Shown here in pieces: positions 2,368-10,454 of a stretch of 64,000 bases of DNA. Position 1 is the first letter of the stretch, and each line of letters opens with the position of its first letter. The stretch is taken from the NCBI RefSeq assembly GCF_024700885.2, contig NZ_CP117016.1; one strand, written 5' to 3'. Both the position numbers and the translations under genes were made by a program. The notes beneath the pieces are model-generated. The model saw only the letters and a program-made list of their open reading frames with translations. It was not told the origin of the DNA and did not search any database. The DNA is from Escherichia coli (GTDB lineage: Bacteria; Pseudomonadota; Gammaproteobacteria; Enterobacterales; Enterobacteriaceae).

Positions 2368-5300
2368 ATGAGCGGAAAACCGGCGGCGCGTCAGGGCGAC
2401 ATGACGCAGTATGGCGGTAGCATTGTTCAGGGTTCAGCCGGGGTACGTATTGGTGCCCCCACCGGCGTGGCCTGTTCGGTGTGCCCCGGCGGGGTGACGT
2501 CCGGCCATCCGGTCAATCCGCTGCTCGGTGCGAAGGTCCTTCCCGGCGAAACCGACCTTGCCCTGCCCGGCCCGCTGCCGTTCATCCTCTCCCGCACCTA
2601 CAGCAGTTACCGGACAAAAACGCCCGCGCCGGTGGGGAGCCTCGGCCCCGGCTGGAAAATGCCCGCGGATATCCGCTTACAGCTGCGCGATAACACACTG
2701 ATACTCAGTGATAACGGCGGCAGGAGCCTGTATTTTGAGCACCTGTTTCCCGGTGAGGACGGTTACAGCCGCAGCGAGTCACTCTGGCTGGTGCGCGGCG
2801 GCGTGGCGAAACTGGATGAAGGTCACCGGCTGGCCGCACTCTGGCAGGCACTGCCGGAAGAGCTTCGCCTGAGTCCGCATCGTTATCTGGCGACGAACAG
2901 TCCGCAGGGGCCGTGGTGGGTACTCGGCTGGTGTGAGCAGGTGCCGGAGGCGGATGAGGTGCTGCCCGCGCCGCTGCCGCCGTACCGGGTACTGACCGGG
3001 CTGGTGGACCGCTTCGGGCGCACACAGACGTTTCACCGTGAGGCTGGCGGCGAAATCACCGGCGTGACGGATGGCGCAGGCCGTCACTTCCGGCTGGTAC
3101 TGACCACGCAGGCGCAGCGGGCAGAAGAAGCCCGGCAGCAGGCCATTTCCGGCGGGACGGAACCGTCCGCTTTTCCTGATACCCTGCCGGGTTACACCGA
3201 ATATGGCCGGGACAACGGCATCCGTCTGTCTGCCGTGTGGCTGACACACGACCCGGAATATCCGGACAACCTGCCAGCCGCGCCGCTGGTACGCTATGGC
3301 TGGACGCCGCGTGGCGAACTGGCGGCGGTGTATGACCGCAGCAATACACAGGTGCGCAGCTTTACTTACGATGATAAATACCGGGGCCGGATGGTGGCGC
3401 ACCGTCACACGGGCCGACCGGAAATCCGTTACCGTTACGACAGTGACGGGCGGGTGACAGAACAGCTAAACCCGGCGGGCTTAAGCTACACGTATCAGTA
3501 TGAGAAAGACCGCATCACCATCACCGACAGCCTGGACCGCCGTGAAGTCCTGCACACGCAGGGCGAAGGCGGGCTGAAGCGGGTGGTGAAAAAGGAACAC
3601 GCGGACGGCAGCGTCATGCAGAGTCAGTTTGACGCGGTGGGCAGGCTTAAGGCACAGACGGATGCCGCAGGCCGGACGACTGAGTACAGCCCGGATGTGG
3701 TGACGGGACTCATCACGCGCATCACCACACCGGATGGCAGGGCATCGGCATTTTACTATAACCACCACAACCAGTTAACGTCAGCCACCGGGACTGACGG
3801 GCTGGAGTTGCGCCGGGAATATGATGAATCCGGCCGTCTGATTCAGGAAACCGCACACAACGGCGATATCACCCGCTACCGTTATGATAATCCACACAGT
3901 GACTTACCCTGCGCAACGGAAGATGCCACCGGCAGCCGGAAAACCATGACATGGAGCCGTTACGGTCAGTTGCTGACCGTCACTGACTGTTCCGGTTATG
4001 TAACCCGTTATGACCATGACCGTTTTGGTCAGGTGACGGCGGTGCACCGCGAGGAAGGGCTGAGTCAGTACCGCGCATACGACAGCCGTGGACAGTTAAT
4101 TGCGGTGAAAGACACGCAGGGCCATGAAACGCGGTATGAATACAACGCCGCCGGTGACCTGACCGCCGTCATTGCCCCGGACGGCAGCAGAAACGGGACA
4201 CAGTACGATGCGTGGGGAAAGGCCATCCGTACCACGCAGGGCGGTCTGACGCGCAGTATGGAATACGATGCTGCCGGACGGGTCATCCGCCTGACCAGTG
4301 AAAACGGCAGCCACACCACCTTCCGTTACGATGTACTTGACCGGCTGATACAGGAAACCGGCTTTGACGGCCGCACACAGCGTTATCACCACGACCTGAC
4401 CGGCAAACTTATCCGCAGCGAGGATGAGGGGCTGGTCACCCACTGGCACTATGACGAAGCAGACCGCATCACGCACCGCACCGTGAAGGGTGAACCGGCA
4501 GAGCAGTGGCAGTATGATGAACGCGGCTGGCTGACACAAATCAGCCATCTCAGCGAAGGCCACCGGGTGACGGTGCATTACGGGTATGATGAGAAAGGCC
4601 GCCTGACCGGTGAGCGCCAGACGGTGCATCACCCGCAGACGGAAGCACTGCTCTGGCAGCATGAAACCAGACACGCTTACAACGCGCAGGGACTGGCGAA
4701 CCGCTGTATACCGGACAGCCTGCCCGCCGTGGAATGGCTGACTTACGGCAGCGGCTGGCTGGCAGGCATGAAACTCGGCGACACACCGCTGGTGGAGTAT
4801 ACCCGCGACCGCCTGCACCGGGAAACGCTGCGCAGCTTCGGCCGTTATGAACTCACCACCGCTTATACCTCTGCCGGGCAGTTACAGAGCCAGCACCTGA
4901 ACAGCCTGCAGTATGACCGCGATTACACCTGGAACGACAACGGCGAACTCATCCGCATCAGCAGCCCGCGACAGACCCGGAGTTACAGCTACAGCGACTC
5001 CGGCAGGCTGACCGGCGTCCACACCACCACCTCAAATCTGGATATCCGCATCCCGTATGCCACGGACCCGGCAGGCAACCGCCTGCCCGACCCGGAGCTG
5101 CACCCGGACATCACCCTCAGCATGTGGCCGGATAACCGTATCGCCCGTGACGCGCACTATCTTTACCGGTATGACCGTCACGGCAGACTGACGGAGAAAA
5201 CCGACCTCATCCCGGAAGGGGTTATCCGCACGGACGATGAGCGGACTCACCAGTACCATTACGACAGTCAGCACCGGCTGGTGCACTACACGCGGACACA

Positions 5301-6555
5301 ATATGCAGAGCCGCTGGTCGAAAGTCGCTATCTTTACGACCCGCTGGGCCGCAGGGTGGCAAAACGGGTATGGCGGCGTGAACGGGACCTGACGGGCTGG
5401 ATGTCGCTGTCACGGAAACCGGAAGTGACCTGGTACGGCTGGGACGGCGACCGGCTGACCACGATACAGAACGACAGAACCCGCATCCAGACGGTTTATC
5501 AGCCGGGGAGCTTCACGCCACTCATCAGAGTTGAAACCGCCACCGGTGAGCTGGCGAAAACGCAGCGCCGCAGCCTGGCGGATGCGCTTCAGCAGTCCGG
5601 CGGCGAAGACGGTGGCAGTGTGGTGTTCCCGCCGGTGCTGGTGCAGATGCTCGACCGGCTGGAAAGTGAAATCCTGGCTGACCGGGTGAGTGAGGAAAGC
5701 CGCCGCTGGCTGGCATCGTGCGGCCTGACGGTGGAGCAGATACAAAACCAGATGGACCCGGTGTACACGCCGGCGCGAAAAATCCACCTGTACCACTGCG
5801 ACCATCGCGGCCTGCCGCTGGCGCTTGTCAGCACGGAAGGGGCAACAGAATGGTGCGCAGAATACGATGAATGGGGCAACCTGCTGAATGAAGAGAACCC
5901 GCACCAGCTGCAGCAGCTCATCCGCCTGCCGGGTCAGCAGTATGATGAGGAGTCAGGCCTGTATTACAACCGCCACCGCTATTATGACCCGCTGCAGGGG
6001 CGGTATATCACTCAGGATCCGATTGGGCTGAAGGGGGGATGGAATTTTTATCAGTATCCGTTAAATCCGGTTCAGTATATAGATTCAATGGGACTGGCAT
6101 CTAAATATGGACACTTAAATAATGGCGGATATGGAGCGAGACCCAACAAACCGCCTACGCCCGATCCAAGTAAGTTGCCAGACATAGCGAAACAATTAAG
6201 ACTGCCATATCCTATTGACCAGGCCAGTAGTGCGCCTAATGTTTTCAAAACATTCTTCAGAGCATTAAGTCCTTACGATTACACACTGTATTGCAGGAAG
6301 TGGGTAAAACCCAATCTGACTTGTACGCCGCAGGATGATCCCCAGTATCCAGGGATGGAGACAAAGACAGCAAGTGATTACCTGCCACAGACAACTTGGC
6401 CAACAACTCAATTACCACCAGGATATACTTGTGCAGAACCCTATTTATTCCCAGACATTAATAAACCCGATGGGCCAGCAACAGCAGGGATAGATGATTT
6501 GGGTGAAATTTTAGCTAAAATGAAACAGAGAACATCGAGAGGAATAAGAAAATGA
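2368..6555 (+). CDS. rhsA: Rhs polymorphic toxin: PAAR-like N-terminus, YD-repeat core, variable C-terminal toxin tip
   Basis: 1395-aa ORF; N-terminal [17 protein letters not shown] (PAAR-like); many YD/RYxYD repeats; core ends with the DPIGL motif near nt 6016-6030, followed by an AT-rich ~175-codon tip of unrecognised family. Confidence 0.93.
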
Positions 6556-7121
6556 AAAGAGCTTTGTTCTTTTTGCTGATGATATTCGTTAGTTTTGGTG
6601 TTATAGCTAATTGCGAAACACAAGCTAAAGATCAAGATTGCTTTACCATTTTCACTAAGGGTACTATTTTTTCCGCGTTTCCTGTCTTAAATAATAAAAC
6701 CATGTGGAGATGGTATCAGAATGAGGACATAGGTGAGTATTATTGGCAAACAGAGCTTGGTATATGTAAAAATAACAAATTCACACCAAGCGGGGCGAGA
6801 CTCTTAATTCTCGTCGGATCACTACGCCTTAATGAAAATCATGCAACCAAAGGAACGTTGCAGGAGTTGCTAAATACAGCAGAAAAAACGGCGTTTCTCG
6901 GCGATCGGTTTAGAAGTTATATAAGAGCGGGTATCTATCAAAAAAAGAGCAGTGATCCAGCTCAGTTGTTGGCAGTCCTTGATAATTCAATCATGGTTAA
7001 ATATTTTAAAGATGAGAAGCCAACTTATGCTCGAATGACAGCACATCTCCCGAACAAAGATGAGTCTTACGAATGTTTAACAAAAGTACAGCATGAACTG
7101 CTTCGTAGTGAAGAAAAATAA
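6552..7121 (+). CDS. putative cognate Rhs immunity protein, secreted (N-terminal signal peptide)
   Basis: start codon overlaps the rhsA stop (ATGA at 6552-6555); GAGG RBS about 10 nt upstream; N-terminus [21 protein letters not shown] is signal-peptide-like; AT-rich like the rhsA tip. Confidence 0.6.
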
Positions 7122-7289: not shown

Positions 7290-7637
7290 ATGAGAAACTC
7301 ACTAATATTACTTATTATGATATTGTTTACAATATCACACTCAGTATTTGGAAAAGAAAATTCAGCGGAAATTTTAGTAAATAGTCGTGAAATGGCTTTG
7401 GAATTATCATATGTTTATATTAAATATATATACGGGAAAGAAAAAGCAGAATTTCAGAAACCATATAGTATTACAGATGACAATAATTGTTGGAAAATCG
7501 AGGGAAAACAACCGAAGACGTTAGGAGGAAATTTTACAATACTAATAGCGAAAAAAGATGGGCAAGCGTTGGATGTAATACACAAAATAATCCACTGTTC
7601 AGACGATTCAAATATTTTACCAAGGTGTGTTTCGTAA
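7290..7637 (+). CDS. small secreted hypothetical protein, possible orphan immunity protein
   Basis: 115-aa ORF with signal-peptide-like N-terminus MRNSLILLIMILFTISHSVFG; has a frameshifted paralog at 9240-9507; sits in the Rhs-associated AT-rich region. Confidence 0.5.
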   Translation: MRNSLILLIMILFTISHSVFGKENSAEILVNSREMALELSYVYIKYIYGKEKAEFQKPYSITDDNNCWKIEGKQPKTLGGNFTILIAKKDGQALDVIHKIIHCSDDSNILPRCVS

Positions 7638-7839
7638 CTATTTTGTGTACAATATGACTCTACATATCGACGAAAAAACCACTTGATTTGACAGGAACAC
7701 ATTCAAAAAAATTTCTTTTTCATTTCAGGAGCGATTTTCATCTGTTACTTGAAGTATCTGTGAGATTAAGTGACTCCCCCTAACGTCGTACTAAATAGTA
7801 ATTACTGGCCATACCGGGAGCAGTATTCGGCGCTTCCCA

Positions 7840-8080
7840 CATGCAGCAGAATAACCGCATCAGCGAAGATGTATTGTATTTTTACTATCACAATGTGTAC
7901 GGACGGTTTATGGAAAAGAATGAACATTAGATACGCGATGCGGCGGCAGGTTACACGGTTATCACTACGATAGCCAATACTGGCTGGTGCATTACCGCCG
8001 TGAACAATAGGACGCCGTACTGCTGGAAATTTCTTACCTTTATGACTCCCCGCGCCGCCGTATTGGGAAACGGGAAGCAA
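7840..8080 (+). pseudogene. decayed internal fragment of an Rhs core
   Basis: aligns by eye to rhsA nt ~5130-5370 (e.g. relic GYHYDSQYWLVHY and YLYDSPRRRIGKR vs rhs[14 protein letters not shown] and [13 protein letters not shown]); interrupted by stop codons; GC-rich patch inside an AT-rich region. Confidence 0.6.
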
Positions 8081-8654
8081 TCAAGATGAGGCTGATATAA
8101 TGTGCGGAATGCCTGAGTATTTTTAGAATAGGGGGGTAATATGTTTGATAGAATATATCTTGGTGATCGAGCAATAAAAAATTGAATTTGATTTATGGAG
8201 TAAACAAATTAGAATTCAGGTTAATTTAATCTCAAGGATAGCCTATGGTACAACAGAATGGAATTTTTATGATAATGAAGACTTAGAAGATGGTTATTTG
8301 GTATTTTCAGATGTTAGTTTCTTCAATATAACTCCTAATGGCTCTATTCCAGATGATTATATAATTTCAATAATTACAGATAATGTCAATGTTGAATATT
8401 TTGAATCAACTATAGTTGCTGTTGGTCAAATTCGAAACACAAATGTTGGTGACATTGATAATATTGGTGAATGTCAAATTTTCATCAGGTATAAAGACAG
8501 CTGGATTGAGAATAAACTCAAAGAAAAAATAATTGAATAACCATGTTATGTATAGACATTTTAGATGGAACGAACCAGAGGAAGGCATGCCTCCGACTTG
8601 GGTTATATGGGCACGGAGTTTTAGTGTAGTGAACTCAACGACGCAAACCGAATA

Positions 8655-8720
8655 ACCTGCCGCTGGCGCTTATCAGCACGTAAGGGACAACAGCGTAGTA
8701 CGTAGAATAATCCTACCCAC
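8655..8720 (+). pseudogene. short decayed relic of the Rhs core 3' end
   Basis: cctgccgctggcgcttatcagcacg is near-identical to rhsA 5811-5835 and to the yibJ copy at ~10669-10693; similarity decays downstream and is interrupted by stops. Confidence 0.5.
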
Positions 8721-8792
8721 GTAGTATGGACACAGGCCTAAGCGAGGTTCTGGTTTTCAAATTTTTCGGGAGTTAGATGATTGGAGGAACAG

Positions 8793-9158
8793 ATGATAAG
8801 AATCGCATTTTTAATAACCAATAAATTTCTTGAGATAGATAGTACCACTCTTGCTGGATATGATTTTAGCGGGATGAATCTACATCGTGCCACCCTCAAT
8901 GGTTATTGTCTTGATGGGGCGAAATTTGAAAAAACTCATTTAAGAAATGTAATGATTCAACATACATCAACTAGAAATGCTGTCTTTCGCAATGCGGCTC
9001 TGATGAATGCTATTCTGAATAACTCAGATTTCACTGGAAGTGATTGTAGTAATTCAAGGTCAATAGGTGAAAATTTTAAAGCAATAGATAATCATGGGAA
9101 AGATATAATAAATGGAAAAGGATTGCCTAATGTTTGCAAAATACATGACAACGTATAA
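8793..9158 (+). CDS. pentapeptide-repeat protein, hypothetical
   Basis: ORF with GGAGG RBS 5 nt upstream of ATG 8793 (the track ORF begins at an in-frame TTG at 8781); sequence shows pentapeptide-like periodicity (GMNLHRATLNGYCLDGAKFEKTHLRNV...AVFRNAALMNAILNNSDFTGSD). Confidence 0.5.
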   Translation: MIRIAFLITNKFLEIDSTTLAGYDFSGMNLHRATLNGYCLDGAKFEKTHLRNVMIQHTSTRNAVFRNAALMNAILNNSDFTGSDCSNSRSIGENFKAIDNHGKDIINGKGLPNVCKIHDNV

Positions 9159-9239: not shown

Positions 9240-9507
9240 ATGCGCAAGTATGAAAGTGAGGGGAAATACACCGTTAGAAATTTGGTCAAAAATAAAGCTA
9301 TAGCATTGGAATTAGCTGAGATGTATGTTAAAAATCGTTATGGACATGATGCCGAAGAAGAAAAAAAAACCATACAAAATCATGGAATTACCAACAAGTT
9401 GGATTGTTGAAGGCACCATTGAATCAGACCAAATTGCTGGTAGGGTTTTTATTATAGAAATAGGCAAAAATGACGGGAGAATTCTAAATTTTGGCCACGG
9501 AAAATAA
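9240..9507 (+). pseudogene. frameshifted paralog of the 7290-7637 gene, interrupted in an A9 homopolymer
   Basis: frame A (9240-9410, MRKYESEGKYTVRNLVKNKAIALELAEMYVKNRYGHDAEEEKK) and frame B (9325-9507, ...PYKIMELPTSWIVEGTIESDQIAGRVFIIEIGKNDGRILNFGHGK) together align with the 7290 protein (SREMALELSYVYIKYIYGKEKAEFQKPYSITDDNNCWKIEG...ILIAKKDGQALDVIHKI); the frames meet at the A9 run 9361-9369; losing one A restores one ORF. Confidence 0.6.
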
Positions 9508-9611
9508 GTATGTAAGGATAAACAAACATCGTGTGTGCTGATGGCAGAGTAGGTGGAGGACTCCAGACAGTCAAACGATAGAAAAAGATAGTCTTTATGG
9601 AGGTTCCTGCA

Positions 9612-10454
9612 ATGTCGAATACATACCAGAAAAGAAAGGCAAGTAAAGAGTATGGTTTATACAATCAATGTAAGAAACTAAATGATGATGAATTATTTCG
9701 CTTACTTGATAATCGCAATTCATTGAAAAGGATTTCATCTGCCAGAGTATTGCAGCTAAGAGGTGGGCAAGACGCTGTTAGATTGGCAATTGAATTCTGC
9801 GCTGACAAAAATTATATCCGTAGAGATATAGGAGCATTTATACTCGGGCAAATAAAAGTTTGCAAAAAATGCGAAGATAGCGTTTTTAATATTTTAAAAA
9901 AGATGGCACTGAATGATAAAAGTGCTTGCGTTCGAGCTACAGCAATCGAGTCAACTGCTCAGCGATGCAAGAAAAACCCAATTTATTCACCTAAAATAGT
10001 AGAACAATCTCAAATTACTGCTTTTGATAAATCGGCTAATGTCAGACGTGCTACGGCATTTGCTATTTCTGTTATCAATGATAAAGAAACAATTCCACTA
10101 TTGATTAATCTGTTAAAAGATCCAAATGGAGATGTCAGAAACTGGGCCGCATTTGCAATAAATATCAATAAATATGATAATAGTGATATTAGGGATTATT
10201 TTGTGGAGATGCTTCAGGATAAAAATGAGGAAGTCCGTATTGAAGCAATAATCGGACTTTCCTACAGAAAAGATAAAAGGGTTTTATCTGTTTTATGCGA
10301 TGAGTTAAAAAAAAATACTGTTTATGATGATATCATTGAAGCTGCGGGTGAATTAGGTGATAAAACGCTACTTCCTGTTTTAGATACTATGTTGTACAAG
10401 TTTGATGACAATGAAATTATAACTTCCGTTATTGATAAGCTGAAGCGTTCATAG
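9612..10454 (+). CDS. yibA: HEAT-repeat protein
   Basis: N-terminus MSNTYQKRKASKEYGLYNQ at the internal ATG 9612 matches recalled YibA; repeated D/N-x-x-VR-x-x-A HEAT-like units; lies between Rhs modules. Confidence 0.8.
   Translation: MSNTYQKRKASKEYGLYNQCKKLNDDELFRLLDNRNSLKRISSARVLQLRGGQDAVRLAIEFCADKNYIRRDIGAFILGQIKVCKKCEDSVFNILKKMALNDKSACVRATAIESTAQRCKKNPIYSPKIVEQSQITAFDKSANVRRATAFAISVINDKETIPLLINLLKDPNGDVRNWAAFAININKYDNSDIRDYFVEMLQDKNEEVRIEAIIGLSYRKDKRVLSVLCDELKKNTVYDDIIEAAGELGDKTLLPVLDTMLYKFDDNEIITSVIDKLKRS

Follow-up and report, generated by a model that had tools for sequence, protein, structure and literature searches.

A probable orphan immunity pseudogene of the DUF6258 family, frameshifted downstream of a deleted Rhs toxin tip in Escherichia coli

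A stretch of 64,000 nucleotides of Escherichia coli DNA (RefSeq assembly GCF_024700885.2, contig NZ_CP117016.1; hereafter the window) carries at positions 8141–8540 of the plus strand what is, with high probability, an orphan immunity gene of the DUF6258 family that has become a pseudogene by ordinary decay and is shifted out of frame after codon 13. The "414-base ORF" without an ATG, which an earlier note on this DNA had described here, is most likely the out-of-frame remainder of this gene, and a functional protein would not be made from it. The surroundings are those of an E. coli rhsA-type locus, with a full-length Rhs gene (2368–6555), a small downstream gene overlapping it (6552–7121), and a downstream array of small AT-rich genes and Rhs fragments, behind which come yibA (9597–10454), another Rhs fragment, and yibH. 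The main Rhs ORF is open over 1,395 codons in the window; its counterpart in strain PCN033 (L001:779–4966) contains an internal stop and carries a pseudogene annotation, which shows that the window does not stem from PCN033 itself, although 7600–8600 is 100% identical.

The frame of the ATG-less ORF contains three stops across the region, TAG 8124–8126, TAA 8175–8177, and TAA 8538–8540. Early on this frame was taken to be open from 8127 to 8540; its end was borne out by the last of the three stops, but the in-frame TAA 8175–8177 closes the frame, and the open stretch covers 8178–8537 only, i.e., 120 codons (8178–8540 with the terminal TAA, the 3′ fragment of the pseudogene). An open stretch of this length is not due to chance: the local GC content is 27.5% and the stop probability ≈ 0.095 per codon, and 120 open codons did not occur in any of 5,000 shuffles of 8127–8543 (mean 40, maximum 112). 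Where TTG and GTG had been named as the only candidate starts, TTG 8298 is indeed in frame and represents the sole canonical start, whereas in-frame GTG, like ATG, is absent. What had been overlooked is ATG 8141, which lies in another frame 4 nt behind the strong Shine-Dalgarno sequence AGGGGGG (8130–8136), kept in all aligned E. coli alleles. This ATG opens an ORF of 14 codons, MFDRIYLGDRAIKN, which ends with a premature TGA (8183–8185) right after a run of six adenines (8176–8181), and which constitutes the 5′ fragment of the pseudogene in its original frame (8141–8185). A scan of 7600–8900 for promoters and terminators gave no signal above shuffle expectation, and a terminator was absent from this interval. 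Two ORFs on the minus strand, 8406–8588 (60 aa) and 8040–8174 (44 aa), were rejected as coding candidates; they run antisense to the conserved coding frame and lack support.

The relation between the two fragments is evident from the intact arrangement in strain O103 ML775, in which an Rhs protein of 1,425 residues (L003:1760–6037) is followed, after a gap of 14 nt, by a DUF6258 gene of 133 codons (L003:6052–6453, WP_000460276.1). In the alignment of the window with this allele, the sole indel is located in the poly-A tract, with A8 in O103 and A6 in the window; A7 is found in C41(DE3), O157:H7 FRIK2533, and Ecol_545, and in most E. coli copies. The first 13 residues read from ATG 8141 are identical to those of the intact protein, but in the window the frame between the conserved ATG and the conserved stop is interrupted, the cause being A6 in place of A8. 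The ORF thus lacks an ATG because the loss of two bases in the poly-A tract separates it from ATG 8141. When the two adenines were restored, a protein of 133 residues resulted that matched the Pfam profile of DUF6258 (PF19772, gathering threshold 25 bits) with 90.6 bits (E 1.2e-25), and that shares 127 of 133 residues (95%) with intact E. coli members of the family. The repaired pseudogene is therefore a member of DUF6258, while the ORF as it stands, translated over 80 residues from TTG 8298, scored 16.5 bits, below the threshold. A comparison of the immunity protein with NCBIfam found nothing. The frameshift would have deprived the window copy of its function; one argument against its being a pseudogene is that the ORF is undamaged apart from the tract, which may mean that inactivation is recent or that some expression persists.

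In public annotation the locus is treated in different ways. On identical sequence, RefSeq/PGAP places the start at ATT 8181 in strain 1190 (119 aa, WP_097744632.1) and at ATA 8238 in PCN033 (100 aa, WP_231367441.1). Together with TTG 8298 from the mechanical ORF list, three discordant starts exist for one and the same sequence, and none of these calls flags a pseudogene. The RefSeq annotation is inconsistent, as is expected if automated annotation has to assign a start to a frame that is truncated. Taken at face value, the two PGAP entries for a non-pseudo "DUF6258 family protein", along with the 120 open codons, would argue for an intact gene which initiates at TTG 8298, ATT 8181, or ATA 8238 and encodes a shortened, functional DUF6258 protein. 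Such a gene is very unlikely. The three start calls disagree, none has a Shine-Dalgarno sequence comparable to that of ATG 8141, and ATT and ATA are very rare initiators; the TTG product, besides its score below the Pfam cut-off, would lose the first 53 residues, the most conserved part of the family with most of its near-invariant positions, and the homologs from other genera all start at an ATG equivalent to 8141. The proper annotation is consequently a pseudogene at 8141–8540, and not a protein that begins at TTG, ATT, or ATA.

The DUF6258 family comprises 220 representatives at 50% identity, most of them 125–145 residues long and nearly all stand-alone. Conservation is concentrated in residues 4–80, and the near-invariant positions include Y6, G8, D9, R10, S32, R33, W41, Y44, and G52. 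Homologs of 133 residues with ATG starts are present in E. albertii, Citrobacter, and Salmonella (80–94% identity). The intact gene is situated directly 3′ of a full-length Rhs gene in O103 ML775, 2013C-4465, and O121:H19, and its ATG follows 14 nt past the Rhs stop both in E. coli (loci L003, L017, and L020) and in a genome outside this species, GCA_031981805.1 (L014). In the latter, the C-terminal 259 residues of the Rhs protein are 74% identical and the DUF6258 protein is 63% identical to the E. coli counterparts, and the immunity ATG is again offset by 15 nt from the final base of the toxin stop. In all intact loci a stop codon and a Shine-Dalgarno spacer lie between the Rhs and the DUF6258 reading frames, the latter being translated separately from its own ATG.

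This arrangement bears directly on the proposal of the earlier note that the ORF is a remnant of the decayed Rhs fragment rather than an independent gene, more precisely its C-terminal tip, once part of the Rhs polypeptide. The ORF directly follows an Rhs relic, in the same frame as TAG 8124–8126, and Rhs tips are AT-rich, as is the stretch of the ORF; the proposal is nevertheless extremely unlikely. In the intact loci the Rhs frame ends at the equivalent of TAG 8124–8126, which is the toxin's own stop codon, the toxin tip in front of this stop is a different, unrelated sequence, and the DUF6258 members listed are all small stand-alone proteins. The search for homologs fused to Rhs cores, suggested as a check, returned not a single Rhs-sized protein among the best 150 of the 220 family representatives, all of which have at most 219 residues. 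Continuity of DUF6258 with the Rhs frame was found in none of the intact homologs, and synteny thus refutes an Rhs tip. What stands of the proposal is that the ORF belongs to the module of the adjacent decayed Rhs and is not an intact, free-standing gene; it is the 3′ part of a separate DUF6258 gene. Along the same lines, homologs that are independent genes with conserved non-ATG starts had been named as the observation that would speak against an Rhs remnant; independent genes do exist, but they start with ATG.

The DNA immediately upstream of the pseudogene documents the fate of the toxin. Positions 8069–8126 correspond to the last 18 codons and the stop TAG of the Rhs C-terminal toxin, and 18 of 18 residues are shared with the C-terminus of the O103 Rhs protein WP_181458658.1 (TGSNQDEADIMCGMPEYF, followed by the stop). 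Homology to the toxin breaks at 8069, and what lies further upstream are two diverged, frame-broken pieces of an Rhs core. The first (7841–7924, approximately Rhs residues 923–950) showed 39% identity in blastx against the O103 Rhs protein and the window's own Rhs; the second (7948–8073, approximately residues 963–1004), with 57% identity over 42 residues, is read in a different frame and contains an internal stop. Both segments together gave a joint blastx E value of 6e-13. Base-by-base comparison with the O103 ML775 locus located the deletion junction at a 6-bp microhomology, AACGGG (8069–8074), a motif present on both sides, such that the core (…GCAAAACGGGTG…) is joined out of frame to the toxin end (…TCAACGGGAAGC…). 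About 400 codons are gone at this junction, among them the DPxGL cleavage motif and almost all of the toxin. Among 609 genomes with a match to the toxin-tip DNA, 57 cover at least 80% of it and 552 give a partial match only; the partial matches listed all have the same breakpoint (query 491–548) and keep exactly the last 58 nt. The toxin deletion is old and shared. The cassette occurs downstream of different main Rhs genes, at rhsA, rhsB, and rhsC positions.

Just 3′ of the pseudogene, 8657–8743 holds a short Rhs core fragment with the motif LPLALIST followed by a stop, for which the annotation of C41(DE3) gives a partial "RHS domain-containing protein". The next orphan cassette seems to begin with this fragment and to extend into a pentapeptide-repeat ORF (8781–9158). 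A second orphan gene of the same array, at 9240–9507, is likewise broken in a poly-A run (A9, 9361–9369) and split into the ORFs 9240–9410 and 9325–9507. This NTF2-fold immunity gene is a paralogue of 7290–7637 (37% identity, E 8e-12), and PGAP labels it as frameshifted in PCN033.

That DUF6258 is the immunity partner of this Rhs toxin is a well-supported inference from position, co-variation, and fold. The intact gene has the hallmarks of rhsI genes, being a small ORF directly downstream of a polymorphic Rhs C-terminal domain and being inherited together, and varying together, with one toxin tip; the same toxin family accompanies it in E. coli and in GCA_031981805.1, and its 58-nt tail precedes the pseudogene in the window. 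The DUF6258 genes of Salmonella and of metagenomic contigs reside in islands together with Rhs fragments and members of known immunity families, e.g., Imm15, Barstar-like, and ankyrin. Poole et al. (2011, PMC3150448) described cognate rhsI immunity genes as well as orphan CT/immunity modules downstream of rhs genes. The window resembles these orphan rhs-CT/rhsI modules in that a displaced cassette of toxin tip and immunity gene follows an rhs core fragment, and in that the cassette is placed downstream of a full-length rhs gene with its own, different tip and immunity gene (PMC3150448). In contrast to the orphans tested by Poole et al., which were functional (PMC3150448), the module in the window is doubly decayed: a mere 58 nt of the toxin is left, and the immunity gene is frameshifted.

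In the intact O103 locus, the toxin is formed by the last ≈ 180 residues of the ≈ 1,425-residue Rhs protein (C-terminal domain L003:5490–6037). Its core of ≈ 105 residues is conserved, with the invariant residues D44, H46, H63, H72, H74, and H104. The E. coli tip has in addition a C-terminal extension of ≈ 55 residues, a hydrophobic helix (GTLSFFSSVLHMF) and then a Cys-rich end; the extension is absent from most toxin homologs and was poorly modelled (residues 121–128 with pLDDT < 50). The predicted fold of the toxin core is similar to that of PT7, a non-specific DNase that depends on metal, and the predicted fold of the immunity protein is similar to that of PIM7; in both cases the model agreed with the respective fold. 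DNase activity of the Rhs toxin would follow from this likeness. Sequence comparisons did not lead to the same relatives. The toxin tip had no match in Pfam at E values up to 1, phmmer searches of PDB sequences gave no matches for either the toxin or the immunity protein, and the DUF6258 profile run against PDB sequences at E values up to 10 returned chance matches only (E ≈ 1), PIM7 not being among them. Homology to PT7 and PIM7 was thus not detectable at the level of sequence, and the relationship is drawn from the predicted folds.

PT7 has been characterized as a Mg-dependent non-specific DNase, and PIM7 puts an acidic loop into the catalytic pocket of PT7 and thereby occludes the catalytic site (bioRxiv 10.1101/2021.10.19.465003). 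The PIM7 of the PT7–PIM7 pair from Bacillus cereus (PDB 8OWU) shares 16% identity with the DUF6258 protein in the structural alignment. Several features set the E. coli system apart: LXG/T7SS carriers are the main fusion partners described for PT7, whereas the E. coli toxin is carried by an Rhs protein of Enterobacteriaceae; this toxin also differs from PT7 by its Cys-rich extension, and the window copy of the immunity gene differs from PIM7 by its frameshift. No paper mentioning DUF6258 was found in a literature search under this name, and Pfam gives the family no function. The PT7/PIM7-like assignment suggested for DUF6258 and the otherwise unannotated Rhs tip may be regarded as a modest new annotation.

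The distribution of the locus was surveyed by megablast with 8090–8570 in 5,426 complete E. coli genomes. It was found in about 836 of these, always on the chromosome and annotated as "DUF6258 family protein"; the toxin is retained in 57 of the 5,426. Exact-match probes around the tract identified the in-frame A8 in 146 genomes, the shifted A7 in at least 415, and the shifted A6 in 35. In the other ≈ 240 genomes the flank of the tract is variant; to judge from one representative, these probably carry the Ecol_545-type allele, also with A7. About four-fifths of the copies are out of frame, and the in-frame copies outnumber the genomes with toxin.

Homopolymer runs are error-prone, and it may be asked whether the frameshift reflects a sequencing or assembly error in a gene that is really intact. 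Isolated discordant calls do occur, such as A8 in O157:H7 SS17 against A7 in other O157 genomes, or A7 in HCP4S3_I4. For the window, however, such an error is almost certainly not the explanation: the same A6 allele occurs in 35 complete genomes that were obtained independently, by different laboratories and from different hosts, and the difference from A8 amounts to two bases, not one. Over 7600–8600 the window is 100% identical to PCN033 and 34 other complete genomes.

Some individual genomes deserve mention with regard to the tract. O157:H7 SS17 (L007), with A8, and FRIK2533 (L004), with A7, share the nonsense change GGA to TGA after residue 103, and their difference in tract length is due either to recent slippage or to homopolymer sequencing error. 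HCP4S3_I4 (L018, NZ_CM149872.1) possesses a full-length Rhs with the complete PT7-like tip (1–1348), followed by an A7 immunity allele (1363–1763), and a second copy of the locus is present in this genome. The co-occurrence of toxin and A7 could be explained by an assembly error, by protection from the second copy, or by tolerance of A7.

The mode of sequence change in the orphan copies is informative. In the O103-like class, the recent changes that separate orphan copies from the intact allele are all non-synonymous (1–9, against 0 synonymous), and further damage is seen in the form of the O157 nonsense codon and a 3′ frameshift in ETEC4077. Comparison of the two old allele classes gave pN/pS ≈ 0.3. 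This is consistent with purifying selection during the time of pairing with the toxin, and with a later relaxation of selection. The window allele itself is identical to the O103 type over its first two-thirds; all ten substitutions fall into the last third (8333–8430) and are common to the Ecol_545 type, which suggests that the allele is a recombinant (mosaic).

A more elaborate explanation would regard the poly-A tract as a recoding or contingency site, at which slippage of RNA polymerase or ribosome, or heritable switching of tract length, still yields some full-length immunity protein and turns the gene conditionally on. A6, A7, and A8 are all encountered among the genomes, the ORF is otherwise undamaged in the window, C41(DE3), and Ecol_545, and HCP4S3_I4 combines a full toxin with A7. 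As inferred from the sequence, A7 forms the classical −1 slippery heptamer A-AAA-AAA, such that a −1 slip would yield exactly the 133-residue protein, while on A6 a +1 slip of tRNA-Lys would yield a protein of 132 residues. Were this true, orphan DUF6258 genes that look dead would give low or switchable immunity against the PT7-like Rhs toxins of rival E. coli, such as O103 and O121 lineages, and it could be understood why ≈ 80% of the copies are out of frame, often otherwise intact. We consider this explanation very improbable, on several grounds. Family members differ in this respect: Salmonella encodes the same Lys-Lys pair within ATC AAG AAA ATC, and two more distant homologs have a single frame without the A run. 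Full-length, single-frame proteins are the rule, and a programmed frameshift conserved in the family was rejected for want of the run in these homologs. The A6 allele is identical over 481 bp in its 35 genomes, which indicates a stably inherited allele, a stimulatory element is not evident, and orphan copies gather non-synonymous, nonsense, and frameshift changes. Finally, A6 requires a +1 or a −2 event, either of which is much rarer than a −1 event.

With ordinary decay as the preferred reading, the history of the module can be rationalized as follows. The intact immunity protein would be small and cytoplasmic and would have a polymorphic Rhs C-terminal toxin as its cognate partner. Most likely it binds this toxin and thereby keeps the DNA of the producing cell and its kin from being degraded; the PIM7-like protein would do so by blocking the active site of the PT7-like toxin. 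The module in the window is an orphan displaced to a position downstream of a different main Rhs gene (2368–6555). The first event was the deletion at the 6-bp microhomology, by which the remainder of the core and almost the whole toxin were lost and 58 nt were left. In a second event, the A8 tract at codons 13–14 of the immunity gene shrank to A6, with the frame shifting after codon 13. In this order the toxin went first, by a microhomology deletion common to hundreds of genomes, and the immunity gene later, at its homopolymer weak spot.

The locus thus documents a route by which orphan toxin/immunity cassettes decay. Strains of the window type should be sensitive to those 57 E. coli genomes that still possess the toxin. 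For the family as a whole, the analysis proposes a role that can be put to the test: DUF6258 would confer immunity to a PT7-like toxin, probably a DNase, carried on the Rhs proteins of Enterobacteria.
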